64,000 nt of DNA from Flaccisagitta enflata (taxonomy: Eukaryota): contig OZ231126.1 of assembly GCA_965153355.1 (NCBI GenBank), forward strand, positions 43,152,001 through 43,216,000. The letters are read 5' to 3'. Each line of letters begins with the position of its first letter. The first letter of the stretch is position 1. A model generated the notes under the pieces. That model had not been told where the DNA came from and searched no databases. It saw only the letters and a program-made list of their open reading frames with translations. Below are positions 24,112 to 42,419 of the stretch, piece after piece. Made by a program: the position numbers and the translations under genes.

Positions 24112-24209
24112 GATGTCGCAACCCGTACGATACAAGCTGACCGCTGACCTTTTGTTCACAGATGTAAGGCAAAGCTGCGCTCGAGCTCTGACATTAGGGA
24201 AAAAAAAAC

Positions 24210-26267
24210 ATTGACCCTGACCTTCATCTTCAAGTTGAACCCTCAAGCTGCAACCTTCCTGCAACCTCGCCAAGTAGGAGTAAAGACGAGAGGGGGCACT
24301 GAGGCAATCATCCACTCTGTCCAAGCCATCCTCAACAACACCGCCATCCCTGCTAACAGCAAGTGGGTGGTGCAGATCGACTTCAAGAATGCCTTTAACA
24401 CCATCGATCGGACAACTTTCCTGGCCGAAGTTCGCGAGCGCCTGCCGGGCCTTTCAGCTTTTGCTGAGTGGTGCTACGGCGCTCACTCACGGCTTGTGTT
24501 TGGCGAAGACATTATCTACAGCGCCACCGGGGTCCAGCAAGGGGACCCACTAGGACCTCTGCTCTTTGCCATTTGCCTCCATCTCCTCATCCGCCGCATC
24601 GAAGAAGTCGCTCCCAACCTGCTCATCAACGTCTGGTACCTGGATGATGGCGTTCTTGTTGGCGATCCAAAGTCCATCTTGGCCGCCTTCGAAATCATCA
24701 AGGAGTTCTCTCCCACCCTCGGGCTGGAGCTCAACTTGGAGAAGTCCACCCTCTGGCGGTGCCTGGAGGCCCGTGCTGACCAGACCCAATCCACCATCGG
24801 CACTATCACCCAACTTGGCATCCCTGAGGTCCAATCCAATGGCTTCGTTCTCCTGGGGGCTCCAGTTGGAAGCGAAGCATTCTCTCGAGCTACGGTTGCA
24901 GAACGTGTGGAAAAGTTGGCAGATCTTTTGGCCAAGGTTTCGTCCCTTCAAAATCCTCAGATTCAGCTCTCTTTGGTCCGCTCCTGCTTTGGCCTAAGTT
25001 CGCCTACTGCCTTAGGACGTGTGATCCAGCCTCCGTCATTGATCAATTTGGTTCCTTCGACGATGCCCAGTGCCGTGCCCTCTCTGACATAGCCGGGACG
25101 CCGCTCTCAACTCAAGACCCAGCATGGATCTTGGCGTCTCTCCCTGTGTCTCTTGGGGGCCTTGGCCTGAGAAGTGCCGCCATTCACAGTCCAGCTGCCT
25201 TCGTCGCTTCCAACCTGCAAACATCCCACCTGGTGGAGAAGATAATTGCACCACACAAAACCCTCCGTGACATCACTGCTGCAACTTCCCTGCTCACCAA
25301 CAACTCAACAAACGCCACAACTCCTTTGCCCGAGGAAGGTCTAACAGCAAAGACTCCACAAAAGCTTCTCTCGCGTCGCATTGACGAATCCCGCCTCCAT
25401 CTTCTCGAAAACATGGACACTGGGGATCGATTTCCGATTGTTCTTCAATCAGTGCGTCAGCAGGGGACCGGAGCCTTTCTGAATGTCATTCCATCACCAA
25501 CTCTAGGCCTCTACATCCCTCCGCGCGAATTCACTCTGGCCACAAAATACCGTCTTGGGCTCCCGGTCTATCCAAGTCCTGGGCCCTGCCTACTCTGCCA
25601 GAAGGATTCTGACATCTATGGAGACCACGCCATCTCAGCGTGCATCGTCAGTGGTGATCGAACTCGACGCCATGACAGCCTAGTCAACGCCATCTATGAA
25701 CGATCTCAATCAGCACTACTGCGCCCCACAAAGGAGGAACGGAATCTTCTCGACGACCGTTCAAGGCCTGGCGACATCACGTTTGAACAATCGTGGCGGC
25801 TCTGCCCGGGGAAGATGAAGATTGCTTTAGACGTCACAGTTGCGTCTCCATTTCGTCAAGACTCTCACTCCCATTCCGCCGCGGACGCCACCTTCGTCTT
25901 ACGAAAAGCGCGGGAACACAAATTCCGCAAGTATGAAGACAAACTTCCTCTTGGCGTCGGCCTAGTCCCCCTCCCGGTCACCACCTTCGGTCTGTGGGAG
26001 GAAAATGCAGCCGCCAATCTCCTAGAAATTGTCAACATCCAGTCCAGCAACTTGCGTGGCGACAAAAAGAATAATAAAAGACACTTCTTTGAGCGTCTGT
26101 CCGTGACTTTACAACGTGAAAACGGCTCCATGCTGCTTGAGCGCTCTCCGCTCCCTGCACCAAATGTTGATGGTGAACTTTAAATTGTTATCTCGTCTTT
26201 CGTCTTCTGTGATTTCCATTTGTGCCTTCCTATACATTTATACCTTATCGTCTGATAAAAAAAAAAA
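24210..26267 (+). mobile_element. Non-LTR retrotransposon, RLE group (CRE-like), 5'-truncated
   Basis: RT motifs DFKNAFNTIDR, GVQQGDPLGPLLF and WYLDDG; LPVSLGGLG; CxxC...H...C knuckle followed by RHD, RPGD, ALDVTV and HKFRKY (RLE). Short 3' UTR with an A11 tail at 26257-26267; A10 at the 5' junction. Confidence 0.9.
24211..26183 (+). pseudogene. RT-RLE polyprotein broken by one frameshift near 24995
   Basis: The track's ORFs 24211-25092 and 25131-26183 join if the frame shifts at ggcct|aagttc, giving ...SCFG(L)-KFAYCLRTCDPASV...AWILASLPVSLGGLG. The N-terminus is absent. Confidence 0.85.
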
Positions 26268-26928: not shown

Positions 26929-28163
26929 TATGTCACGAGTCTGAAAGATCTCGATCGATAGACTCGTTTTGCTTTTGCTATTTACAGAAAAACCAGGCCG
27001 GATACACGGCAATCCAGTCGCGGACGGTTGGGTAGGAGCAGTAATACGAAAACCACTTGGAATTCAGAAATGTGACGGACGGACCGACCGACACGGCAAG
27101 GTGTAGAGTCGCGTGTCCGCGACTAAAAACGTACGTAATGGTAAAGCTGTATGTCCGGTAATGGTAATGGTAAACGTACGTACGGGTTGGGTGCTTCACA
27201 TAGCACAAGTTGTTTATTTCTTTTCGCCCTCTCTACCTGATGTGGAGTGGCCAATTTTAGGACCCTTACCATTTTTTTCTTATCAAAAATCGTTCATCTT
27301 CCGTTTTCTAGAAAATAGGTTTTGAGGGCCTAATTTGCATAATGCAGTGGGATAAAGCAATATGCTGATATTGTTTGAATTAACTTTTACAAATTTCTAT
27401 TTTTCAAAGAATTGCAATTCTGCCTTTTCATAAGCTTTTTTATAGCTTATGTTCTAATATTTTATTCTATTTTTACAAGCATTATGTTTTTCTAAAATAA
27501 ATAATTGTCCTTTTTGTAACAAAACTACACAGGATTTTGCTGAATTCTGGGAAATCTGTGAAACTTTAAGGCCAAAACAAAAACGGAAGATGAAGGAATT
27601 TTGAAAAAAGGAAAATGGTCATCTTCATGATTTTTGCTCCTCCACATTACCTGAGTAGGGTGAAGGGATACTCCCAACTTTTGCTATGCGAAGCACGCAG
27701 CCGTACGGGTCTTCTTTTACAAGAGGATCTCACTTATATTTTCATCTATCATGACTATTTCTTCGCAGGAAATTTATGGACGTATAAGTATGGTTGAGTT
27801 TAGGGGTGGGGTTGAATTTAGGGGTAGGGTTGAGTTGAGGGGTAGGGTTGAGTTGAGGGGAAGGGCTGAGTTGAGGGGAAGGGTTGAGTTGAGGGGTAGG
27901 GTTGAGTTGAGGGGTAGGGTTGAGTTGAGGGGTAGGGTTGAGTTGAGGGGTAGGGTTGAGTTGAGGGGTAGGGTTGAGTTGAGGGGTAGGGTTGAGTTGA
28001 GGGGTAGGGTTGAGTTGAGTTGAGAAGTAGGGTTGAGTTGAGGGGTAGAGTTGAGTTGAGGGGTAGGGTTGAGTTGAGGGGTAGGGTTGAGTTGAGTTGA
28101 GGGGTAGGGTTGAGTTGAGTTGAGGGGTAGGGTTGAGTTTAGTTGAGGGATATGGTTGAGTTG

Positions 28164-28396
28164 AGTATGGAATAGGACTCCTTATACCCACTTGAAACAC
28201 CCTAATATTAGAATATCCTTTATAAGAATATGAGGGACCCCTATTTAATTTAGCAATTGACGTAATACACCACAAACTTTACAGATTTCTAATGCGGGTG
28301 ATATATAAACGAATATTTCTTTGGAATTTCAGTAAACCAAGAAATTCCAAAGAAATTTCGTCTTTCTTTCAGTCCGTATGACTTCAATGTCATACT
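28164..28396 (+). repeat. 5' LTR
   Basis: AGTATG...CATACT termini; no difference from 39596-39828 seen by eye. TATATAAA at 28302-28309. Confidence 0.97.
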
Positions 28397-28410
28397 TGGA
28401 GGCAGCGAGG
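28397..28410 (+). promoter_or_regulatory. Primer binding site (imperfect match to a tRNA-Leu-type 3' end)
   Basis: TGGAGGCAGCGAGG abuts the LTR and resembles the tRNA-Leu PBS TGGTGGCAGCGGTGG. Confidence 0.7.
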
Positions 28411-28620
28411 TCTAGTAAAATCTGCGCGCCACAAGTGGCTATTCGGTCAGTTGGGCAGGAGCACCGGCGGCGTTTCTAGGAAAAGGGATTCGACGCGGGT
28501 CTCTCCCAATACTCATCGATCATCGCGAAGCGGTATCGATCTACATTTAAACAGAAACATTATCGGCGGCTCTCGCCGTCAGAGGAAAAGCCGAGGTAGG
28601 ATCTTCGACTTTTTTCCAAG

Positions 28621-30960
28621 ATGTCAACCCCAGAGGAGATAAGTACGAATGAGCTTCTTCAAGAGATATCAGACTTGTCGGCTCGAATATCACAACTGAG
28701 ACCTGGTGTTTCAGCCACCATTTGGTGTCCAAAATGCTGGAGGCCTCCATCACAGCACAAAGGTGGGTCGATAAAAGGATGTAAATCAAAAACGAAAATG
28801 CCAGTTGATCAATTCACTCGTGAATTATTACAACAGAGGAATAACCTGGTAAAATGTATACGGTCTGCAGATACTGAAGGCAGACAGTCAGAGGCGATTG
28901 ATGCGCTACAAAATACAGTAGAGAGGCAGGCCCAGACCATCGAGTCAAATCAAGAAAGGATTAGAAGTCTTCAGGCAACTAAACAAGTCATGTTACACCT
29001 GATGCGCAATTTGAATGACGCCTATCTAGCATTTATTACAGGCGGGAATGAGAATAAGATGAAAAGGATTTTCAAAGATGTTGACGACTTATTGGTATCG
29101 CTTAACGCAGAATCAAAGTCTTCGAGTGAGAATGAAGATGATGATGATGGTGATGGTGAGGATGATGATGATGGGTGGGACCACACCGGGGATCGTACAA
29201 CATGGCCCATTGATAATGCAAGTATCATTGCAGATGGCAACAGATTGTTCCCGGCAGATAACAACGACGCGGGAGCGACGGAAGCAGGAGCAATAGGCGG
29301 CGTTGGAGCAACGAAGAAGGTACATTTCTCTTTCTCACCCGTCTTGACTCATTCGTCCAATTCGTCCAAGCGAAGCGCTGAGGCATCAGGTCAAACGACT
29401 GGAATATCAGGTCAAACGACTGGAACATCAGGTCAAACGACTGGAACATCAGGTCAGGCAGGAGTAGCATCCGCTCAAAGGATAGTGAATGGAATTTTGA
29501 GACCGGCGTCATCGAACAGGTCGGTGTACGATGTACAAGCCAATACACACACAATTTCCACCCCATCTCCCAGTACACACACAATTTCCACCCCATCTCC
29601 CAACCCACCCTCAACGCCGCAATATCCAGGGTTGTTTGAAAAACCAGGGGTGGTTCTCATATTTCCTAGAGGAGGAACTTTATGTGGGGGTGAAGCTGAC
29701 GCTGATAGCGTTGTTAGGGCAGCGAAAATTGTGAACGTTGATTTCAAGGAAAACATGGATGCATTATTGTACTTGGAACAAAGACGTAAGCTAGTTGATC
29801 AGTTGTCTTGCTATTTTGGCGCTTGCCCTATGTTCACTCATTTGGGGATATTTGCCTTGAAAGCTCATGTCTTCTATAAAACGTTTCAGCCTATCTTAAA
29901 GCGCGAGGCTACGTTTTCTAGCTTTATGGCATTCGTTAAGGAATTTGAGCATCAACTCTATCCTAATTTAGACTCGATTGCGTTGGGGAGACTACACAAC
30001 CGTAAACAACAAAACAATGAGTCGGTTTCAGAGTATTTCACAGATTATGCTGATTTGATATTCATCATTGGCAGACAAGAGGACGATTACATCCAACCTT
30101 TTTTGGCAGGATTATACAATAGAACATTGGCCCACACAGTGTCAAACGCGCAATATGAGGATGGGCAAAGAACATTGAGACGGCTTGCCAATCACGCTCA
30201 ACACATAGAGGCTCAGATAAGCCTCGATAAAGCATTCTTAGAGGGCAAGGATAACAAAAATAACCATCAACGCAACGTTTCGGCTTTAACCAACGCAGGT
30301 TCTCAACAAAGTTCGTCGGCTTCACATAGAGGAAGAGGCCACAATACGCAAACAAGAGGAGCACCGGCGCCACGAGGAGGAAGCGCTCCAGCCGGTAGAG
30401 GATGGTCAAATAGCGGCGCCGGTAGAGGATGGTCAAATAGCGGCGCCGGTAGAGGATGGTCAAATAGTGGCGCCGGTAGAGGTTGGTCGAATGGAAACGG
30501 CGGAGGAGGAAACTGGAGCAAGTACGCGCCAACTAGGAGTCAGAGTTTGCCACGAGGTGGTTACGCCGGAAGTGGCGCACGTGGAGGCGCCAACGCGTCG
30601 TCGGGAGCGTCGAGCGCGCAGGCGAGAGGAACGCAATCGTCATGGAAGGCGCACGTCAACGAAATTGGGGCGTCGATCTCGTCAGCGTCAGAGTCGGGGA
30701 TGACGCCGGAAGGTATCCTCCTGGCAATGAAGATGAAAAAGATGCAATTATCTGGATGTGCCGCTTGTTTAAGTAAGACGCATGTATGGAATGGATCATA
30801 TGAGTTTTGTCGGTCATTTTGTCCGTGTTGTGGCGTGGATTTGAGGAAAGAATGTCATATCGCCATAGAGTGTGAGGACAGACCGAAAGATAAATCTGAG
30901 GCCATCATCTTGGCCAGGGACGCTGACAGAAACGGAGACAAAGACAGATTGCAAGCATGA
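28621..30960 (+). CDS. gag: Gag (779 aa)
   Basis: First ORF after the PBS. Capsid-like QQNNESVSEYFTDY segment, RGG/RGW-rich region and C-terminal Cys/His knuckles (CAACLSKTH...C; CPCC...H...C). Confidence 0.88.
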   Translation: MSTPEEISTNELLQEISDLSARISQLRPGVSATIWCPKCWRPPSQHKGGSIKGCKSKTKMPVDQFTRELLQQRNNLVKCIRSADTEGRQSEAIDALQNTVERQAQTIESNQERIRSLQATKQVMLHLMRNLNDAYLAFITGGNENKMKRIFKDVDDLLVSLNAESKSSSENEDDDDGDGEDDDDGWDHTGDRTTWPIDNASIIADGNRLFPADNNDAGATEAGAIGGVGATKKVHFSFSPVLTHSSNSSKRSAEASGQTTGISGQTTGTSGQTTGTSGQAGVASAQRIVNGILRPASSNRSVYDVQANTHTISTPSPSTHTISTPSPNPPSTPQYPGLFEKPGVVLIFPRGGTLCGGEADADSVVRAAKIVNVDFKENMDALLYLEQRRKLVDQLSCYFGACPMFTHLGIFALKAHVFYKTFQPILKREATFSSFMAFVKEFEHQLYPNLDSIALGRLHNRKQQNNESVSEYFTDYADLIFIIGRQEDDYIQPFLAGLYNRTLAHTVSNAQYEDGQRTLRRLANHAQHIEAQISLDKAFLEGKDNKNNHQRNVSALTNAGSQQSSSASHRGRGHNTQTRGAPAPRGGSAPAGRGWSNSGAGRGWSNSGAGRGWSNSGAGRGWSNGNGGGGNWSKYAPTRSQSLPRGGYAGSGARGGANASSGASSAQARGTQSSWKAHVNEIGASISSASESGMTPEGILLAMKMKKMQLSGCAACLSKTHVWNGSYEFCRSFCPCCGVDLRKECHIAIECEDRPKDKSEAIILARDADRNGDKDRLQA

Positions 30961-30966
30961 CAATTA
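30958..30966 (+). promoter_or_regulatory. Stop-codon readthrough signal TGA-CAA-TTA
   Basis: The only stop between gag and pol is followed by CAATTA, matching the CARYYA leaky-stop hexamer. Confidence 0.8.
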
Positions 30967-33900
30967 CAGAAACCATTATCACAGAAAGAGGACGAGAAAA
31001 GTATTGGTGATAAATTACAATGTCTTTCAATATCAAAATCTCCGAATGAGTATGAGTTGAACATAGATTCAGTGGGACGTGTTTTAAATGGGCAAGAAAA
31101 GAAAGGCGACAATAGGAGTGGAAAAGAGGGTGACAGAAAAGGTGACAGTGAAAGTGACAGTGAGAGTGACAGTGAAAGTGACGGAGAAAATGACAAACAG
31201 TCATTGCATTGTGCTAACGTGAATAAAAAGGAATTTGAGGAAGAAGAGGAGGAAAATGGATGTTCAACGGGTTTTATGAAAGGAAGTAAATTCTATGTGG
31301 CATGTATGGTATCACCATGGGAGGAAGAGAGTGAAAATGGGAGTGATAATGGTCAAGATGGCGCGGTGAAAGGCGAATTTTTCATTGACACTGGAGCAGA
31401 GTGTAGTGTCATTGCCTCAGCTTTAGTAAAAGACATCAGAAAAAGGAAGGGTCCAGGAGTACAACTACTAGGTTTTACGGGCCAAGTAGGGGCGGAGGTG
31501 ACAGATATGGTGGATGTTACACTACATTTTTACCCACAAAGTGTGAGGTGTTCTTTCTATGTGTGCGATGTGGAGACATCAATTATAGGTTCTGACCTGC
31601 TTCGCGATAGGAGCCTGGGCCTCAACTTGAGCACGATGGATGAATTGTTGTATGTCAAAGATGAACGGATTTTGACATCGAGGTCGTTGGATGAAGCAGT
31701 TGATAGCCTGGTGGTAAGAAAGAGGGAGTGGGAAAGTCGTAGTTTAATGGAAAGGAATTGGCCAAAGGTTGAAAGAACTTACTGGATGTCAAACAGACGG
31801 ACTGTCACTCTTGATCCAACATCAATCACGATGGTCGAGTGCAAAATAGAGCCAAATTTTAGGACTGACAGTAAATTTTCATTTCTTTCGTTCTATGATG
31901 AGGAAATACATTCAGTCTACATACCCTCAGTCACGTATGAGAGAGGTACTGTAAATTTCATGATTCCAGTCACTAATCTTACCGGCGAGGAAATGACGAT
32001 TAAGGCAGGTTGGAGGATAGGTGAGATTGTGAAGCACGGTATCACCAAAGACGAACAAGAGACGCGTAGCTTGAAGATATTTCAAGTTGATGTCTGCAAA
32101 ATAGATGTGGTGATGAAAGGAACGAATGAGAAAAGCGAAAGTCAGACAGTTGAACGCGCGACAGTAAAGGAAAATAGTGAATACGACAATGTCAACACAA
32201 ACAACAAAAGGACAATCGTCAAAAACAACACTGGGTCCAAGAACAAAATAGTCGAGAACAACACTAACAACAAAAGAACAATCATCAAAAACAAAACAGA
32301 CGACAATGAAAAGTTAGTAGACAAACACATCAATGTCATCGCAAATGGTAACAACAAAATCGTCAATGTCATCGCAGATAGTAACAACAAAATCGGCAAT
32401 GTCATCAGTGATAATGACAACGGCATCGTCAATGTCATCGCTAATGATAAAAGGAACAAAACAGATGAAAGTTACGCAAAAAGAATAGTGTGTGAAGTGC
32501 TTGATATTCAGCCTCGCAAAAGTGTGATAGAAGGCTCACTTAAAGGTGCGGACAAAGTGAGAAAGGACAGAGAAAAAGCAGACACAAAAAGCAGCAAGCG
32601 CGAAAGAGGGGCGAGTGTTATTACGTCCATCGGAGAATCATATGATGAGAGAAAAAGGACTCGGACAGAGAGTGAGACGAATTTGGAACGGAGACAGAAG
32701 GCCTCGAAAAACGAAGTAGTAAAGAGAGAACGAAAATGGACTCAGGGCGCTGAGGAAGACAAACGCGAAAGGCTGGAAAGAGAAATGATAGGATTGATAT
32801 GCGGAGTGACGGACGAAGTCAAAAGTGGACGGACGGACGAAGGAGAGTTGTCAGCTGTCTGTAGAGACGGAGTAGGGTGCAACGATGTACGTGTGGAGGA
32901 GGTTGTGGTTGAAAAAGCTGCAGCGTCACACATACACAGCGAAGCGGCAGCAGGAGCTGGAAAGAAAAGCAGCTGCGGGAAGCAGCCAGGCGAAAAACGG
33001 AACGGCCTGCATGACGTCACAGGCCCCGTTCTTCTCTCTGATATAGTGAACAAAGGCAGACTTAGTAATGATCTGTTGAAGAGGTGTCAGGACACAGGAA
33101 TTTACTGTGATTTAGAGGCGAAGCAACAAAGTCCTAATCTCCATCTGTTGGGGGTCAGAGCAAACTTTGACCTTGAAAAGGACAAAAGAGCAAAATCAGA
33201 ATTTTGGCCATCAGATGAAATATTTCTAGCAAATTTTGATTTTTCAGGAGTAGAGGAGCCATATTTGAGCAAGTTGAAGGAGCTTTTAGTATGTTTCAAG
33301 GATATTTTTTACAATGTTGACAGGAAAGATCAGTTCAGAGCTGGCATTCAGAATATCCCATTGGTGCATATTGAGGTTCAACCAGGAGTGGTGCCAGTCA
33401 AGGATAAGCAGAGAAGATGTCCAGACAGTAAGAGGAAGTATTTGAAAAAGCATATTGAAGACCTTATTGACATGGGTGTTATTAAGGAAGTGGATAATTC
33501 CAGAGAATCTGCTTCTATCTATGCATCCAATGCTTTTATCATTTTGGAAGAAAGATGGTATAGTGGTGAGAACAAAATTAGGTACAAAAGTCGAATGGTA
33601 GTAGACCAAAAATCTCTCAACAAATCATTGAAAAAGAGTTCATTCCCTTTGCCAAATTGTGAGGCGTTCAGAAGAGAGCTGTCACAATATAAAGTGTTCT
33701 CAAGCTTTGACTTCGTAGAATTTTTTCATCAGGTCAAAACAGATGAGCAGACACAACAGCTATTTGGTATCTATGCTTTAGGCAAGGTTTACAAGTCTCT
33801 CAGATTATTGATGGGAAATATACAATCGGCCAACTTGGGGCAATTTACCTCATCAAAATGCTATGAAAATTGCCCTAGATCATATCCTTTTCAGGATGAT

Positions 33901-36900
33901 GTTTCATGCTGTTCAATGACCAAGGAAGAACATATAGAGAAGGATTTGCCTGACTTTTTGGCCACAACAAGTTACTACAATCTGCTTGTGAACCCGAAGA
34001 AGTGTATTTTCTTCAGAGATGAGGCCAGAATTCTAGGTCACTTAGTGGGAGAAGAGAGGCTGTCATTATCATCAGAAAAGATTGATAAGATCAAGAAATT
34101 GGCTTTCCCAGAAACAAAAGCTAAATTGAATGCAATGCTTGCATTTTTTGTCTGGTTTGACAGAATGGCAGTCAGACTGTCAGAATTGGCAGCACCTCTG
34201 AGAGAGCTAAACAAACCGGGTGTTCGTTTCAGGCCGTCAGCGATTCATCATAAGGCATTGCAGGACATAAAGGGGCATTTATTAGACCCAGAATGCTGTG
34301 TGTTAAGGACACCTAGTGCTGATGTGGAGGACACGATCTTTTGTTTTTGTGACGCCTCATCTAGCAGCCTGAGTGGGATACTGACACAGATGATGTTACC
34401 ACTGAAGCACAAGCAATCAGGAGAGCAGGGAAGAAAGGAATTGCATTTGGTGGGAGTATGGAGCTCATGCATACCCGAGAACTGGCGTTGTTACCCAATT
34501 TGGTTGAAGGAACTGGTCGCCCTTTGGCAAATGACGCATAAGTATTTTTTCCTACTTTCTGGCAGGCAATTTTTTGTTGTGAGTGACAGCGAGACTTGCA
34601 GGGATTGGGCAAGTATCGATCGAGTGCCAATGGATTTGGCAAGAAAAATCCTTTCTTTGCAACGGTTCGATTTCAAGGTCATTCATGTGGATGGGAAATT
34701 GAACATGGCAGATATCTTTAGCAGGCAGGAAAGGACATTTGACCCTCAAGGAAATAAGATATCACCAGTAGGGACCTATCCAAGGTTCATGGAAGGCCGT
34801 TTGATAAATGGAGATGGAAATCCAATAAGTTGGAAAAAACTCTTCACAGCACCAAAAAGCAAAAGAATGGAAGATTTCTTCGTTCGGAATAGAAAGCAGA
34901 AATTGGCGAAGGCAGTTTCAGTCGAGAAAAAAGAAAAGCCAATTCATGACGACTATGATTCCCGCAAAGACGCGGTTGACAGCCAAATAGAAGGGACAAT
35001 GGAGGTGGTGACAGACAATGACAAATCGACAAAAACAACACGTGAGTGTGTAAGAGAATTCACCTATGATAGAGTGATGGATTCCTTGAGAGCGGGTGAT
35101 GAAATTGATGACGTCAGTGGTGAGGGATTCGTCACCGACTTGCATGAGGGCGTCGTTGAGGACGATGGTGACGTCATTGAGGGCGACGACGACGTCGACG
35201 ACGACGTCGCATCGAAGGAAGCTTGCCGTCGAGGTGTCAAGGAGGAAGAGGAGGAGGAGAAGAAGGAGCTTGGGAGGATGAACATCTGTTCGTTCGGATT
35301 GACGGATGAGGAGATAGGAGAAGGATGGAATGATGCGGATGACGAAGAAGTGGAGGACATCTTTAGAGACGTGACCCTGCCCGTGTATGACGAAGACAAT
35401 CTGGAAAAGGCAAAGGAAATGCAAGAAGATGAAACAATTAGGAAGTGTGCTCAGTATTTGAGGGGCGAGGAGGAAATTCCCCGAAAAATAAATGCTTTGA
35501 GCCTGCCTAAGGATATACAGACGTTCTTACGACATAAGCTATGCTTTAGGCTGAATGAGCAGGGCATATTATTTCGCCTATGGACACATAAAAACGGTTC
35601 AATTGATCCTCTTTTGGTGGTTGGTGATTCACAAATGGACAGACTGATTGCTAAAACCCACGAATTTGATGTAGACTGCCCATCTGGTCTCTCACACATC
35701 GGTCAAAGAAAGACATTTACGGCAATCGCAAAAAAGTGGTACGCGTTCAGACTGAGATTCAAGGTGAACACATACATCTCACGGTGCGCAAGTTGCGCTT
35801 TGAATAACCACATAACAAACAGAGCAAGAAAAGAGGATGATGGAGAACAAATTGCATGTCAAAGCGGAGAATTGGTAGTTATGGACTTTGCGGGTCCATA
35901 TACAATGTTTAGAACAGCGTCAGGCTTGCCAAAATATGTCTTAATATTTTGTGACAGTTTCAGCCGTTACGCTTTTGGTACGCCAACCAATGGTACTAAT
36001 GATGACTATGTACTGGAGGGCGTAATGGAAATGAGAAAAGCGTGGAATGGATTGCCTAAATCTATAGTATGCGATAACGCATTACTATCAAAGCACAGTG
36101 CTACCAGGAAGTTTTTAATGGATAGTGGTGTAACTATTACCCATGGAATGGCGAACATTAGCAGGTGCCAAACAAAGGCCGAACGACTAATATCAACGAT
36201 TAGTCGTTTAATAATGAAGTATCACTCATCTAATCCAAAAACACCATTCTCAAAGTTGGTAAATGAATCTATCATTTGTTATAATAACTCGGTGCATAGT
36301 GGGCTAGGCCCTATGACCGAGGAAGGGGCGATTTCGCCACGGGAATTACACTTTTCACCTACCTTAAAGGCGCCGTTGATGAACATTGCGTCGAAAGAAG
36401 ATGGAAAAGGAAGCAAATCAGCAAAGGAGACAATTTCTTTGGCGAAAAGGGCGGCGGAAGAGTCTCTTCTGTACAACGTACAGTCGTTTCTGAAGAAAAA
36501 AGATCACAGTTCGCCAACTGATTATGGCCGTAGGCTTAAAAGTGGAGATCTTTGCTTGCTAAAAAGGACTTCATTCGCAAAAGGCATTCAGAAAAAGTTG
36601 GCATTCAAATTACAAAAAAATGCCTTTGAGGTCATGGACCGCGTCGGTACCAATACTTTTAGATGCAAAAGTATCTTGACAGATGATATCTGTATTCTGC
36701 CGGGTGACTTACTACTAATCACCAGAAACCAAACGAAGGAGGACTTACTAAGATTGTGTGAACGCATGGAAGAGATGGCCACAAAGAACGAAGCCTCGAA
36801 TTCGCCACCAATGACAAGAAGAAGGGCGCGTGGTGCCCAATTATCGCCGTCGATTGACGCCAATTTCGTCCTAAATGCGGGGCTGACGACGAAGAGCCAC

Positions 36901-36939
36901 TACGGTGGAATCGGCCTCGATGCGTTGGAATGGATTTGA
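30961..36939 (+). CDS. pol: Pol (protease, dUTPase-like fold, RT, RNase H, integrase), in frame with gag
   Basis: IDTGA (GAC 31387); RT FDFVEFFHQV and FQDD (33889-33900); RNase H CDAS (34351), KELVA, VSDS and ADIFSR; integrase H-H-CxxC with D 35884, D 36073 and E 36181 (D-x35-E). The frame is open from the codon after the gag stop. Confidence 0.95.
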   Translation, partial: QLQKPLSQKEDEKSIGDKLQCLSISKSPNEYELNIDSVGRVLNGQEKKGDNRSGKEGDRKGDSESDSESDSESDGENDKQSLHCANVNKKEFEEEEEENGCSTGFMKGSKFYVACMVSPWEEESENGSDNGQDGAVKGEFFIDTGAECSVIASALVKDIRKRKGPGVQLLGFTGQVGAEVTDMVDVTLHFYPQSVRCSFYVCDVETSIIGSDLLRDRSLGLNLSTMDELLYVKDERILTSRSLDEAVDSLVVRKREWESRSLMERNWPKVERTYWMSNRRTVTLDPTSITMVECKIEPNFRTDSKFSFLSFYDEEIHSVYIPSVTYERGTVNFMIPVTNLTGEEMTIKAGWRIGEIVKHGITKDEQETRSLKIFQVDVCKIDVVMKGTNEKSESQTVERATVKENSEYDNVNTNNKRTIVKNNTGSKNKIVENNTNNKRTIIKNKTDDNEKLVDKHINVIANGNNKIVNVIADSNNKIGNVISDNDNGIVNVIANDKRNKTDESYAKRIVCEVLDIQPRKSVIEGSLKGADKVRKDREKADTKSSKRERGASVITSIGESYDERKRTRTESETNLERRQKASKNEVVKRERKWTQGAEEDKRERLEREMIGLICGVTDEVKSGRTDEGELSAVCRDGVGCNDVRVEEVVVEKAAASHIHSEAAAGAGKKSSCGKQPGEKRNGLHDVTGPVLLSDIVNKGRLSNDLLKRCQDTGIYCDLEAKQQSPNLHLLGVRANFDLEKDKRAKSEFWPSDEIFLANFDFSGVEEPYLSKLKELLVCFKDIFYNVDRKDQFRAGIQNIPLVHIEVQPGVVPVKDKQRRCPDSKRKYLKKHIEDLIDMGVIKEVDNSRESASIYASNAFIILEERWYSGENKIRYKSRMVVDQKSLNKSLKKSSFPLPNCEAFRRELSQYKVFSSFDFVEFFHQVKTDEQTQQLFGIYALGKVYKSLRLLMGNIQSANLGQFTSSKCYENCPRSYPFQDDVSCCSMTKEEHIEKDLPDFLATTSYYNLLVNPKKCIFFRDEARILGHLVGEERLSLSSEKIDKIKKLAFPETKAKLNAMLAFFVWFDRMAVRLSELAAPLRELNKPGVRFRPSAIHHKALQDIKGHLLDPECCVLRTPSADVEDTIFCFCDASSSSLSGILTQMMLPLKHKQSGEQGRKELHLVGVWSSCIPENWRCYPIWLKELVALWQMTHKYFFLLSGRQFFVVSDSETCRDWASIDRVPMDLARKILSLQRFDFKVIHVDGKLNMADIFSRQERTFDPQGNKISPVGTYPRFMEGRLINGDGNPISWKKLFTAPKSKRMEDFFVRNRKQKLAKAVSVEKKEKPIHDDYDSRKDAVDSQIEGTMEVVTDNDKSTKTTRECVREFTYDRVMDSLRAGDEIDDVSGEGFVTDLHEGVVEDDGDVIEGDDDVDDDVASKEACRRGVKEEEEEEKKELGRMNICSFGLTDEEIGEGWNDADDEEVEDIFRDVTLPVYDEDNLEKAKEMQEDETIRKCAQYLRGEEEIPRKINALSLPKDIQTFLRHKLCFRLNEQGILFRLWTHKNGSIDPLLVVGDSQMDRLIAKTHEFDVDCPSGLSHIGQRKTFTAIAKKWYAFRLRFKVNTYISRCASCALNNHITNRARKEDDGEQIACQSGELVVMDFAGPYTMFRTASGLPKYVLIFCDSFSRYAFGTPTNGTNDDYVLEGVMEMRKAWNGLPKSIVCDNALLSKHSATRKFLMDSGVTITHGMANISRCQTKAERLISTISRLIMKYHSSNPKTPFSKLVNESIICYNNSVHSGLGPMTEEGAISPRELHFSPTLKAPLMNIASKEDGKGSKSAKETISLAKRAAEESLLYNVQSFLKKKDHSSPTDYGRRLKSGDLCLLKRTSFAKGIQKKLAFKLQKNAFEVMDRVGTNTFRCKSILTDDICILPGDLLLITRNQTKEDLLRLCERMEEMATKNEASNSPPMTRRRARGAQLSPSIDANFVLNAGLTTKSHYGGIGLDALEWI

Positions 36940-36946
36940 GACAGTA

Positions 36947-36982
36947 TTTTTTTTTTTTTTTGGTTTTTGTATTTTTTTTATT
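36947..36982 (-). terminator. Antisense poly(A) signal followed by an A15 tract
   Basis: Minus-strand AATAAA at 36982-36977, a 15-nt spacer, then A15 (plus-strand T at 36947-36961), about 110 nt downstream of the 143-aa ORF stop. Confidence 0.6.
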
Positions 36983-37092
36983 AGCAAAATTTTGGATAAA
37001 ATCAAGAAATGAAAGAAAGAAATAATTAGAAAAATTTTGAATTAAAAACCCTTAAGGGCAAAGTGGGGAAGAAAATCTAAGTGGGGAAAAAT

Positions 37093-37524
37093 TTAAACCC
37101 ACAGCGAACGGGCATTATTCTCATCGCAATGGCGGGGGGCCGGTCCTCGCATCTCGATGGTTTGGACTCGGGCTCTGGCACTGTCGGTGGCGTTCCTAAA
37201 CGGAACGCCGCTGACAGCTGGCGTGGCCATGGGGCTGGTGGAGGCGTCTTGGGCCTGATGAGGCCTCAGAAGGTCCAACGCAGCCCTTGGGACAGACTGC
37301 AGGGTGGCCAAGAAGCGGTCCACCGCTGCCAGTTTGCGCCTGAGGGCTACGAGGACCCCTGAGACCAGCATCAGGGCACCGATGACCCCTCCGACCGAGC
37401 CCCATGTCACCGCCTCAGAGTCCGGTTGGACGGACGCAACCGTTGGACTGGGAAGCGAGGTTGATGATTCTTCGTAAAAGTAATCATCAACCGAGCTTCC
37501 CGTGTAAAGGGTAAAGTTTGCCAT
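37093..37524 (-). CDS. Antisense small single-pass membrane protein (143 aa)
   Basis: caaaATGG start context; visibly GC-rich against AT-rich flanks. N-F-T sequon at residue 3, S/T/P stalk, TM at about residues 39-61 with two GxxxG motifs, followed by RRK. Confidence 0.75.
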   Translation of the reverse strand: MANFTLYTGSSVDDYFYEESSTSLPSPTVASVQPDSEAVTWGSVGGVIGALMLVSGVLVALRRKLAAVDRFLATLQSVPRAALDLLRPHQAQDASTSPMATPAVSGVPFRNATDSARARVQTIEMRGPAPRHCDENNARSLWV

Positions 37525-38576
37525 TTTGATTTTGAATAATGACTTTTGGAAACAAATTTAAATTAAATTCCCTCTAAATGTAAAAAGAAAGAAGAAACCG
37601 CCGTTCGCTGTTAGAAGAAAGAAGAGAAATGAAGTAAAAGAAAATGAATAAAAAGAAGATGTAATATAAAGCCGCTTCTTTTGAGACAGAAATACGAGCC
37701 TGTAAAAAGAGAAAATAGAACAATCAGTGTTTAATATTAGAGACGCTCTAATGATCAATGAATGTGAAATGTGAACGATGAATGAATGTGATAAATGAAC
37801 CTGGCCAGGTAAACGAACGAATGTTGACAGCTGATTGATGAATAGTGAACGAAGTGTGAACGGGGGAGTGAATGCGCGGTAGTAAATGAATCAAAGAAAC
37901 AAATGAACAATCAGCTCGAAGTTGATCAGAGAGGGCGTCTAATTTTAGAGTGATGGAAATAAGTGGCTAATGAAATTACGGAAGAGAAAAAGTGAAGAAA
38001 CGAAAAAGAATTTGCTAACCCCAGGGGGGCAAATTAAAGTAAGGTCTCGACAATGAATGTGAGCCTTTCGAAAACCGGTATTATTTAGGATAGTATGCCC
38101 CCGGCGCTATCTAGGGACGTGCCCGATTATCAATTCTTTAGTCTGAAGGATAAAGAATTTTCACTAAGCCCTTACCAGATGGTATTTGGGAGTGATTAAC
38201 AATGCGCAGACAGTACTGTAGTCGTATTTTTTTTTATGGAATTCCTATATTTTTTTTACGACATGAAGTCGATGATGGTTATATTTTTTTCTCGATTGAT
38301 GATTTAGTTCCCAAATGGAAAATCTTGAGAATAAAAACGAATTGAAAACGGCAGGAGTGAGGGAAAAATAATGAGTGACCAATGAAGTAAATTTGGCTAA
38401 ATCAGCTGCCAGCTTTGGACTTTGATCAAAGAAATGGAAAAAAGGGTCGGTGTGAAATTAAATTTGAAATTATTGATTTCTATCCTTTTCTCTCATGCTT
38501 AATTTCCCATTGTTTCACTACTCTGTATGGACTTTACCTTTTTTTTCCCGACTGTCGATTGACTGAGCATGCTGAT

Positions 38577-38889
38577 TTACACGTTTTGTATGGCATACTG
38601 ACTGTTTCGTCTTAGTGGTGTTGGAGTATTGGGAGCATTGCCTTGATTTGCTAGGATTTGCGTTGTTTGTAACTTTTGTTGAAAAATTTTGAATATGGTG
38701 AGAATAATATCGAGCAACACCAGGGCAATGGTGCCAAATTGAAGATATTCGACATCGTCAGTATTCTGTAATACTTTCTTTTTATACTCAGTTTTGAGAT
38801 ACTTCTCTGATACTGGTAAACATCGAGAAGTAGTGGTTCTTCCGGTAGCCGTACGATACACAATCAATTGACAAGCATCCCCGTCTTTC
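38577..38889 (-). CDS. Antisense spliced type I membrane protein (157 aa), exon 2
   Basis: Follows the acceptor ...ATTGATTTTAG|G; 313 nt, in frame with exon 1. Encodes KDGDACQLIVYR..., TM FGTIALVLLDIILTIF, and a tail ending AIQNV*. Confidence 0.8.
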
Positions 38890-39056
38890 CTAAAATCAAT
38901 GATTGACAGGCATGTTAACGATTAGAAATAGAAGTATTTGAATTCAATGCAAGCCTGAACTAATTAATATGTTACCATGGCGAAGAAGGTAATAATAACT
39001 TGAACTGACTTTTGCATTAATCTTGTGTTCAATAATTTTCTCCCCCCCCCACTTAC

Positions 39057-39217
39057 CTGTAGCCCACGCTTTCCAAATACCCCTCAAATTTTTGAAAACA
39101 CTTATTCGAGGGAACTGGATCTTTAACGTAATCCTCAAGTGTTTGCTCATTTGATTCAGAGGCCATTCCCATGGTGAAGAGAAGAGATGCCAACGCGAGA
39201 AAGAGATATTGGTTCAT
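39057..39217 (-). CDS. Antisense spliced type I membrane protein (157 aa), exon 1
   Basis: GCCATCATG start; signal-peptide-like MNQYLFLALASLLFTMGMAS; 161 nt ending CAG|GTAAGT. The 167-nt intron is 39056-38890. Confidence 0.8.
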
Positions 39218-39587
39218 GATGGCTTGTCGCAGTAGTCAAGCGGAGAAGTGATTAGGGAATAAAAGGAATTTTGGTAACCTAACAAATGCCGAGTCTTTTA
39301 TAGTTTCTTTGGATTAGAAGGGTTGTTGATTGATAATTTGAATATTTAGAATTCTCCTTTTCTGTCTTAGTTACTATCCAAACCTATAAGTCGTGACTTA
39401 TAAAAGTTAAAACGTGACCGTTATTTTCCGTTCATTCAAAGATTGTTATTGTTACGCAAACGCCCGCATTTCTGAGGTTTTTCATTTTTAGGTGGGTAAA
39501 AGGAGATCGACTTTGTTTTTAAATTCCGGGAATTTGAAAAAAAGAAAAAAAAAACCTAGTTCACACTAATGGTTTTTTTTTGTCAAC

Positions 39588-39595
39588 AGGGGGGA
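39588..39595 (+). promoter_or_regulatory. Polypurine tract
   Basis: AGGGGGGA immediately before the 3' LTR, preceded by a T-run. Confidence 0.8.
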
Positions 39596-39828
39596 AGTAT
39601 GGAATAGGACTCCTTATACCCACTTGAAACACCCTAATATTAGAATATCCTTTATAAGAATATGAGGGACCCCTATTTAATTTAGCAATTGACGTAATAC
39701 ACCACAAACTTTACAGATTTCTAATGCGGGTGATATATAAACGAATATTTCTTTGGAATTTCAGTAAACCAAGAAATTCCAAAGAAATTTCGTCTTTCTT
39801 TCAGTCCGTATGACTTCAATGTCATACT
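39596..39828 (+). repeat. 3' LTR
   Basis: Copy of 28164-28396. Confidence 0.97.
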
Positions 39829-41278
39829 GTTGAGTTGAGGGGTAGGGTTGAGTTAGGGGTAGGGATGAATTCAAGGGAAGGGTTGAGTTCAGGAGCTGGA
39901 TTGAGTTTTGGGGTAGGGGTGGGTGTAGGGGTAGGATGAGTTAAGGGGTAAGGATGAGTTTAGGGGCAGGGGTGATGTTAGGGGCAGGGGTGATTCTAGG
40001 GTAGGGGTGAGTTTGTGGGTAGGGGTGAGTTTAGGGGTAGGGGTGAGTAAAGGGGTAGGGGTGTGTTTATGGGTAGGGGTGTGTTTATGGGTAGGGGTGA
40101 TTTTAGGGGTAGGGGTGAGTTTAGGGGTAGGGGTGAGTTTAGGGGTAGGAGTGAATTTAGGGGTAGGGGTGAGTGTAGGGGTAGGGGTGAGTGTAGGGGC
40201 AGCGGTGAGTGTAGGGGCAGGGGTGAGTGTAGGGGTGAGTTTAGGTTGTGTCAAATAAAAAAACACTAAAGTGAGGTCCTCTTGTAAAAGTTTGCCTAAA
40301 TACGTCATGGTAAAGGTGTATGTCTGGCCGGCTCCTTCACGTAGACCCCCAAATTTATTCCAAATTCCTCAACCTGGACTCGAAGTTCCCCCCCCCCCCC
40401 CCCCCCCGGCTCAGTCCTGCCCCTTGTTCGTTTCAACTAAGGTTGCCTGTAGAATCCAGAGCGCCTGAGCCGCCTCATTCAGGGCTCGTAATCAATAGCC
40501 CCCCGGCTCCCTCCTATCGTCTCTGAGATTTGAATTTCATTGCTTTCTAGAAACAAAGTCATGTGTGAGTAGGCAAGGGCAGTGATAAAAAAAAGACTAC
40601 ACTTTTTATTTTAAGAAGAACCATGATTTTAAGAACATCAAGCCTTGAAATAGCTCAAAAATTAAGAACGTCAGTTTTTTTACTAGTAAATTTTTAAAAA
40701 AGTAACTAAAGCATATGAGCAGGAGCTCAGCACCGGAAAAAAAAAACACCAACATGCTTATAAAGCTATCAGAGACCCACCGACCGACATAGGGTGCACA
40801 CGCCCTAAGAAAAAATATCTATATTGATGGCTCGCCCTCCTAATCGCGTTGCGTGCTTTGCGACTCTACACCCCGCTTTGTCATCCGTCCTAGTCGGTGT
40901 GTCCGTCCGTCCATCACACTTGATACTTTTTTTATGTTTTTGCAGTTTTTGGCATCAACGCTCTAGCCTAAGATTGTGCTGAAGATAGTGACCTCAAACG
41001 TGGCCCCTGCCCAACCGCACGCAACTGGGATAGCCGTGTATCCGGTTTTGTCAGAGAGAGATAAGGTGAGTCAAGACAAGTTGTGTGTTCCCACTGTTTT
41101 AGTCGCGTGCTACGCGACTCTACACCCCGCTTTGTCCATCCATCGGTCGGTTGGTTGGTCGATCATATTTTACTTTTTTACGAGTTTTATTTTTAGTCGC
41201 GTGCACGTGACTCAACACCTTGGTTGGTCGGTTGGTCTGTCCGTCAGTTCGTCAGTAATACTTTAAAGTTTGAGAGAA

Positions 41279-41469: not shown

Positions 41470-42419
41470 GGAGAAAATACATAAAAAACTCTTGGAATGA
41501 TTGTAAAATCTGCCTGTTTGTCAGAACAAGGCCGGATACACGGCTACCCCAGTCGCGTGCGGGTGGGCATGGGCCGTAATTGAGGTCACCAGATCATTTG
41601 GGCAGGAGCAGTGAGGCTAAAAATCCCAAAAACCCAAAAAAAGTAAAGTGTGACGGACCGACAGACAGACCGACGGATGGACGGACAGACCGACAAAGCG
41701 AGGTGTAGAGTCGCGTAGGACGCGACTAAAAACTTATGCAAATGTTCATAAAATGAGTTTGAGACCTGAAGTATCTTTCTTTTTCAAAGAATTGAACTTG
41801 AACTACAAAAAAAAAAAAAAGTCCGGATACACGGCAATCCAGTCGCGGACAGTTGGGCAGGAGCAGTAATGCGAAACCATTCGGAATTCAAAAATGTGAC
41901 CTACCGACTGACCGACACGGCAAGGTGTAAAGTCGCGTGTCCGCGACAAAAAATATATTCAATGTGCGGCAGCTACCGGAAGCTACCGGAATCCGCACCT
42001 TTGATCATCAACATTCTCAAATCCTCATTTCCAAAATTCCACAGAAGACAATTTCTCGTTCCCCCTCGGCCGCTGTCGCCATCCTGGATCCCATCGCCTC
42101 CGGCATCATCACAGACATGACGGCGTGTCTCGCCGAGGAAAAATCGGCGTTGGCCAGCGTTGTTGAAGAATCCGCGACAAGGTTTACGTCAATTATTAGA
42201 CTACAGACGACGCGTTACTCGTTTTTGACCCTCGATGGTGAAGTCTTAAGATAGCTCTTCATCGGTGACACTCCTGCCAGCGTCACAACGGGAACTGTAT
42301 CACCAAATGCGGTTGAAGCTTTCGTGGTGTCCAAAATGGGATGGATCCACATCCTCGCCGGTTTTACTTCAAATCATGCGCAAGGCCAGGTTTGCCCATA
42401 CATGCATGTGAACGCACAC

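Follow-up and report, generated by a model that had tools for sequence, protein, structure and literature searches.

How does a retrotransposon whose gag gene closes with a stop codon come by its polymerase? The question is raised by a long terminal repeat (LTR) retrotransposon in a stretch of 64,000 nucleotides from Flaccisagitta enflata (contig OZ231126.1, positions 43,152,001 to 43,216,000), hereafter the window, whose own coordinates are used throughout. Judged from its sequence, the element is apparently intact, recently inserted and of the Ty3/Gypsy type, and its gag and pol genes lie in one reading frame separated by one TGA. Production of Gag-Pol by UGA readthrough, with the local context of the codon as the signal, is the best explanation of this arrangement and, in our judgement, a fairly probable one. 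Programmed readthrough fits because the in-frame stop is conserved, the two genes share their frame and the spacer behind the stop is conserved although it contains no ATG.

Gag and pol share one frame interrupted by one stop

The coding part of the element comprises the following features.

28621-30957, + strand: gag, an open reading frame (ORF) of 779 codons, with a coiled N-terminal part, a core resembling a capsid, repeats rich in RG and, close to the C-terminus, a Cys/His zinc module
30955-30966, + strand: proposed recoding site, GCA TGA CAA TTA, with the stop at 30958-30960 and the CARYYA hexanucleotide at 30961-30966
30961-31275, + strand: post-stop spacer, 105 open codons without ATG
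30961-36936, + strand: pol, an ORF of 1992 aa that continues the gag frame
31369-31623, + strand: aspartic protease, with FIDTGAECS at 31381-31407 (weak match to Pfam RVP, E 1.2e-3)
33586-34041, + strand: reverse transcriptase (RT; Pfam RVT_1, E 2.3e-10)
34321-34668, + strand: RNase H (Pfam RT_RNaseH, E 3e-6)
35692-36144, + strand: integrase, H2C2 zinc domain and catalytic core (Pfam Integrase_H2C2, E 9.6e-5, and rve, E 3.7e-5, both under their curated cut-offs)
36937-36939, + strand: stop codon of pol, TGA

Translation of 28621-36939 yielded 2773 positions in a single frame with two stops only, TGA codons at 30958-30960 and, at the very end, 36937-36939, in agreement with the original prediction that gag and pol share a frame whose sole interruption is the first of them. 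The predicted Gag-Pol length of 2772 aa was recovered as well (779 residues of Gag, one inserted residue and 1992 of Pol), and so were the bases around the stop, which read GCA TGA CAA TTA CAG and in which CAATTA fits CARYYA. The listed start of pol, already noted there to be a mere TTG (31057), turned out to be the first start-like codon after the stop, and a pol starting at this TTG is an artefact. Two genes in the same frame with one stop between them is the arrangement of the in-frame-stop readthrough class, exemplified by murine leukaemia virus (MuLV), Tj1 and Skipper.

The first in-frame ATG after the stop, at 31276, lies 106 codons past it. By local base composition, the chance of finding 105 open codons here is about 1e-4, and the other two frames of this stretch hold 4 and 17 stops. 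The encoded peptide is also conserved. The relative P0077 has its N-terminus four codons past the stop and matches the post-stop sequence of the window from its own fifth residue (E 1e-23); between spacer residues +5 and +43, 27 of 39 residues are identical to the start of P0077 (hand count from the alignment). Later parts of the spacer are matched by P0025 (74% identity) and P0021 (50%). A conserved spacer in which 105 codons pass without an ATG speaks for ribosomes that enter it from gag.

The stop is conserved among relatives

The original prediction had pointed to sister copies as the place to look for a sense codon instead of the stop. We read the conservation of the stop from the proteins of relatives, all of which come from ENA metagenome assemblies, and at this level no sense codon was found. 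The search query was an 841-aa sequence that covered both sides of the junction and had X in place of the stop (query position 421); it was compared with a representative library of 1.84 billion proteins, and matches were judged by their best stretch. None of the 140 matches had a best stretch crossing position 421. A 97% identical Gag of 778 aa (P0007) ends exactly in ...DRLQA, and 14 of the 15 members listed for its 90% cluster (of 22) end in ...GDKDRLQA, while the fifteenth stops earlier at ...CAACLS. All 14 sister Gags that reach the C-terminus therefore share the stop residue. They vary in total length (86-778 aa) and carry substitutions just upstream, so that their common last residue is not the product of cutting at contig ends.

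The same holds over larger distances. We aligned seven lineages, namely the Gag of the window, P0014 (68% identity), P0013 (57%), P0042, P0009 (40%), P0101 and P0102, and their C-termini all fall in the last two columns, 22-23 residues past an invariant Glu. The zinc module (window 30694-30957) has the pattern G-C-x2-C-L-x3-H ... C-x3-C-P-x-C ... H-x-A-x2-C, which is invariant in seven lineages, and the final residue of Gag is Ala in seven lineages. All 19 gag-type matches that reach this module end at most 21 residues beyond the match. More distant clusters have an ending of their own, shared in the P0012 cluster by all 5 members listed and in the P0017 cluster by 11 of 15 listed, the remaining four being truncated or divergent.

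From the other side of the junction, the gag zinc module was absent from all 22 N-termini of pol-type relatives inspected, and no fused Gag-Pol relative of at least 1524 aa was found in a set of 5.8 billion proteins. A further protein search with a 281-aa junction piece gave no match at 154-492 aa. At the protein level the stop is thus conserved in relatives and, because both sisters and diverged lineages end there, it is a fixed and old feature of the family rather than a private mutation.

We also searched for the DNA of relatives. The junction piece as query found none in viral contigs or JGI metagenome contigs, the protease alignment none in metagenome, viral or genome contigs, and the gag-tail alignment none in genome or viral contigs.

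Family contigs across gag-pol and the stop

Coverage of the element comes from contigs of a DNA run labelled 'organism A' and from those of marine metagenomes. Word depth over the element in the organism's own run is several hundred to thousands, hence the element is multicopy. The contig comparison draws on a listing of 40 of the 423 difference entries and 12 of the 34 indel entries. Among the listed differences within gag-pol, 26 of 35 fall at third codon positions (p = 9e-7) and 25 of 35 are synonymous; the 12 listed indels are confined to the 3' non-pol region, with none in gag-pol. Judged by these entries, selection acts on the family at the protein level.

Two contigs bridge the stop. 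The first, from X1, does so over 977 nt with 23 differences (2.4%) and no gaps, which means that this copy keeps the same gag-pol frame; the second, from X4, spans 1067 nt with 46 differences and 3 gaps. Another X1 DNA contig joins 30620 to 30957 and so skips 336 nt (30621-30956; 112 codons, in frame). The skipped part takes in the zinc module and leaves a single base ahead of the stop codon. Since the shorter of the two flanks of the joint measures only 27 nt, the contig may be either a deletion variant or an artefact of assembly.

The context of the stop resembles a type I signal

In type I readthrough signals the stop is followed directly by CAR-YYA (as defined in PMC3542737), and this is what TGA CAA TTA offers. 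CARYYA follows 7 of the 2594 TGA triplets in the window (0.27%) and occurs at 10 of the 2772 in-frame codon pairs of the ORF. According to PMC3542737, CARYYA stimulates readthrough of UGA and UAA too, and UGA-C is in itself a leaky tetranucleotide (0.3-5%). In the context of tobacco mosaic virus (TMV), UGA is reported to be read through in planta, less than UAG and with insertion of Trp, and replacement of the C after the stop by G to abolish readthrough (PMC2754532).

There is no stable RNA structure after the stop: fold z-scores are +1.08 (123 nt) and +1.10 (301 nt), weaker than in shuffled sequences. Rfam, including the selenocysteine insertion sequence (SECIS), gave nothing in the element at E <= 1 apart from two sub-threshold chance matches. 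Neither a type III pseudoknot nor the type II combination of UGA-CGG or UGA-CUA with a stem-loop about 8 nt on is present, the next codon being CAA. With no structure and no Rfam match, MuLV-like and type II designs are excluded and a structure-free type I design fits. The TMV-type signal of the original prediction hence survives in part: the CARYYA match, seen in one copy, and the absence of downstream structure hold, but the stop is UGA and not UAG. By analogy, the element may work like a type I site without being a textbook member of that class. Our literature search met no CARYYA signal at a gag-pol junction in print, a result that does not show its absence from the literature.

Comparison with known readthrough systems

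The nearest arrangement is found in the Ty3/Gypsy elements Tj1, Tcry1 and Tosmo1-3 of Schizosaccharomyces, whose gag and pol are reported to be separated by a conserved TGA in frame, essential for transposition in the case of Tj1 (bioRxiv 10.1101/2022.12.06.519325). The element studied here shares with them a single in-frame TGA between Gag and the protease-RT-integrase part, at a stop position that is likewise family-wide at the protein level. The context described for the Tj1 type, GAA-TGA-CT(A/G), with conserved neighbours of the stop, resembles a type II or CUAG motif, unlike the CAA-TTA found here (same source). The Tj1-type elements are moreover fungal chromoviruses, whereas the host of our element is a marine eukaryote.

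The bases around the stop are those of the leaky stop of the TMV replicase gene, A-stop-CAA-UUA, for which no RNA structure is reported to be required (PMC3542737), and the TMV signal is described as portable to yeast, human and Xenopus systems (PMC2194720). The difference is that TMV has A-UAG-CAA-UUA in the replicase gene of a plant RNA virus and the element has UGA at a retrotransposon gag-pol junction.

As in the gammaretrovirus MuLV, gag and pol occupy one frame with a single stop. Readthrough in MuLV is given as about 5%, leading to Gag-Pol (PMC2194720, PMC5009743), and its signal as UAG-G, a spacer rich in purines and then a compact pseudoknot, a structure for which the predictions on the element gave no counterpart. 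An in-frame stop between retroelement ORFs is also known from Candida albicans Tca2 (gag/pol) and soybean SIRE1 (pol/env-like), and for SIRE1 stop-codon suppression is described, at the pol/env-like junction, as atypical among Sireviruses (PMC2829016). The original prediction places CARYYA at Sirevirus pol/env-like junctions, where this source speaks of suppression only. Tca2 (Ty1/Copia) and SIRE1 are both of the Copia type, in contrast to the Ty3/Gypsy type of our element.

Proposed mechanism

The anatomy of the junction, the conserved position of the stop, the conserved peptide behind it and the absence of structure are direct observations. We infer from the sequence both the occurrence and the frequency of readthrough, as well as the hexanucleotide as its operative signal. 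In the mechanism that we propose, most ribosomes would terminate at the in-frame UGA, the position of which is conserved, and release Gag, while a minority would insert an amino acid there by means of a near-cognate tRNA and stay in frame. These ribosomes would cross the 105 codons of the spacer and go on to translate protease, RT, RNase H and integrase, producing the 2772-aa Gag-Pol. The likely stimulator would be the immediate context A-UGA-CAA-UUA, which combines the leakiness of UGA-C with a CARYYA of the tobamovirus type I and has no RNA structure behind it.

Several points weigh against this explanation. The natural stop of type I sites is reported as UAG, or UAA in some pomoviruses, and not the UGA found here (PMC3542737). 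On the 5' side a C stands at the second position ahead of the stop, and the 'two adenines' rule (as given in bioRxiv 10.1101/2022.12.06.519325) is thus only half followed. With 7 occurrences in the window and 4.7 expected, the mere presence of the nine-base sequence TGACARYYA is weak evidence. No difference at 30958-30966 appears among the difference entries listed for the family contigs, which is not proof of identity. Finally, the in-frame gag UGA of Tca2, likewise accompanied by a plausible signal, is reported to have shown background readthrough only (0.3%) in yeast reporters (PMC2194720). The original prediction is supported in its core, a real in-frame gag stop, family-wide at the protein level, that would be bypassed to make Gag-Pol, and in part as to CARYYA, for which the match in one copy and the absence of structure speak.

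Retroviruses, and Tj1 and Tosmo among the Ty3/Gypsy elements, are already known to produce Gag-Pol across an in-frame stop, and no new principle is involved. What is new is the exact CARYYA behind a UGA, and the family itself, which is very divergent and frequent in marine assemblies. The work adds a well-supported conserved in-frame gag stop in such a family, an apparently active one of a marine eukaryote, and the consequence for annotation is that the element should be described as gag plus a readthrough Gag-Pol. As a compact natural UGA-CAA-UUA site without RNA structure, the junction also lends itself to a short reporter that could test the type I signal on UGA outside plants.

A broader proposition is more doubtful, though we would still call it possible: that an entire, hitherto undescribed marine Ty3/Gypsy-like lineage relies for its Gag:Gag-Pol ratio on a leaky UGA-CARYYA stop of the tobamovirus type, without RNA structure. 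Members of the lineage abound in marine metagenome assemblies, with at most 26% identity to any named protein. If the proposition were true, the type I signal of plant viruses would be used natively by a retrotransposon outside plants, in a lineage that also carries conserved antisense membrane-protein genes.

Alternative explanations

The strongest competitor is a Pol produced independently of Gag, whether from a spliced or subgenomic mRNA, from an internal promoter at the junction, or by non-AUG or internal initiation downstream of the gag stop. A conserved stop is by itself no proof of readthrough, and an in-frame ATG (31276) sits 35 codons ahead of the DTG of the protease. Foamy viruses provide a precedent for separate Pol, and Tca2 a suspected one. 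In Tca2 a minor promoter is reported at the junction, without readthrough in yeast (PMC2194720). If translation began at ATG 31276, however, there would be no need for the 105 codons before it, which are open (P ~1e-4) and conserved as protein from five codons past the stop. The frame shared with gag would moreover be a coincidence (1 in 3). In most retroelements a Gag-Pol fusion is needed for packaging, which also counts against separate production, and we regard this alternative as unlikely.

Readthrough may also be real with the CAA-UUA match incidental, the signal then being the leakiness of UGA-C alone, distant RNA pairing or an interaction between Pol and eRF1 like that of MuLV. The hexanucleotide was seen in one copy only, UGA-C is leaky at the rates given above, and the Tj1-type elements, with GAA-TGA-CT, do without CARYYA; the Ala that ends Gag in seven lineages hints at a constraint on the 5' side instead. 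On the other hand, the chance of finding CARYYA behind a given TGA is only about 0.3%, and no local structure is available as a substitute signal. On balance we hold an incidental match to be distinctly unlikely.

It is very improbable that we are looking at a dead copy from a single-ORF family, broken by a private nonsense mutation at the TGA, a reading that we rejected at the protein level since the Gags of relatives end at the same stop. About 5% of random substitutions in the ORF create a stop, and the window holds one copy only. Against this, all 14 end-reaching sister Gags and the diverged lineages stop at the same place, the 140 relatives include no fused form, the LTRs are identical, and the gap between zinc module and protease contains just 6.6% of the possible nonsense sites. 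Sense decoding of UGA, by a variant nuclear code (some protists reassign UGA) or by selenocysteine insertion, is extremely improbable and was rejected: pol itself ends at TGA 36937-36939, which makes TGA a true terminator in the element, the 2772 codons contain a single internal TGA, gene callers ended Gag there in all relatives, and no SECIS matched in the element (Rfam, E <= 1).

Gag and Pol proteins

Gag has a weak match to Pfam Retrotrans_gag (E 6.6e-4, below cut-off). Its zinc module differs from the classic CCHC knuckle and gave no match to the zinc-knuckle families of Pfam.

In pol residues, the Pfam spans are 139-221 (RVP), 876-1027 (RVT_1), 1121-1236 (RT_RNaseH), 1578-1617 (Integrase_H2C2) and 1636-1728 (rve). 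The order protease-RT-RNase H-integrase, together with an RT nearest to that of Ty3, is that of Ty3/Gypsy elements, and no family of the Copia (RVT_2) or Bel/Pao (Peptidase_A17) type matched pol in Pfam at E <= 0.01. The solved chains closest to Pol are Ty3 RT 4ol8 (E 3e-15) and Ty3 Gag-Pol 7q5b; the assignment is based on these chains and on Pfam domains. The protease is strongly kept in the relatives P0008 and P0011 (68-71% identity). For the whole Gag-Pol, the 5.8-billion-protein set held only 6 distant matches, with identities of at most 26%.

Pol is unusually long (1992 aa). About 650 aa of low complexity, rich in Asn/Lys and in Glu, separate the protease from RT (31630-33580), and an acidic insert lies between RNase H and integrase (34670-35690).

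Structure of the element and its insertion site

The element as a whole is delimited by the following features.

28164-39828, + strand: complete LTR retrotransposon, Ty3/Gypsy type, 11,665 bp, sole copy in the window
28164-28396, + strand: 5' LTR, 233 bp, with inverted termini AGTATG...CATACT
28397-28412, + strand: putative primer-binding site TGGAGGCAGCGAGGTC, adjoining the 5' LTR and beginning with TGG
39588-39595, + strand: polypurine tract AGGGGGGA, immediately 5' of the 3' LTR
39596-39828, + strand: 3' LTR, 233 bp, flanked by GTTG as is the 5' LTR

Direct LTRs, short inverted termini, a primer-binding site, a polypurine tract and a target-site duplication, the hallmarks of LTR retrotransposons, are all present. 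The two LTRs are identical at 233 of 233 positions, and the copy is consequently young. No second copy was found within the 64-kb window, nor was any tRNA gene there that could name the partner of the putative primer-binding site.

GTTG stands on both flanks of the element (28160-28163 and 39829-39832). An 18-nt minisatellite hosts the insertion and runs on at both sides (27721-28168 and 39828-40268); with such a tandem array as the target, the length of the target-site duplication is ambiguous. Outside the minisatellite, two direct repeats of 142 bp, 89% identical, lie at 26988-27129 and 41813-41953 and are possibly the remains of an older surrounding element. Just upstream, at 24148-25089 on the + strand, is a separate RT ORF (RVT_1, E 4.5e-18), which belongs to another retroelement, since tblastn shows no relation to the element described here.

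Antisense genes in the 3' region

Behind pol, a region of 2.6 kb leads up to the 3' LTR and bears genes on the opposite strand. The first is the following.

37093-37524, - strand: antisense gene of 143 aa in this region, its product with a single predicted membrane helix

Seventeen protein clusters match this ORF at 51-94% identity. Nearly all of them are full length (134-144 aa), which makes the ORF a conserved gene of these retrotransposons; no Pfam family corresponds to it. The 12 listed indels among the family contigs (of 34) all fall in this 2.6-kb region, and none lies inside the 143-aa ORF or the other antisense ORF pieces. A second antisense unit, at 39053-39220 (- strand), has a signal-peptide-like start, MNQYLFLALASLLFTMGMA, and a GT donor at its end, and a possible next exon with a hydrophobic helix is located at 38577-38921 (- strand).

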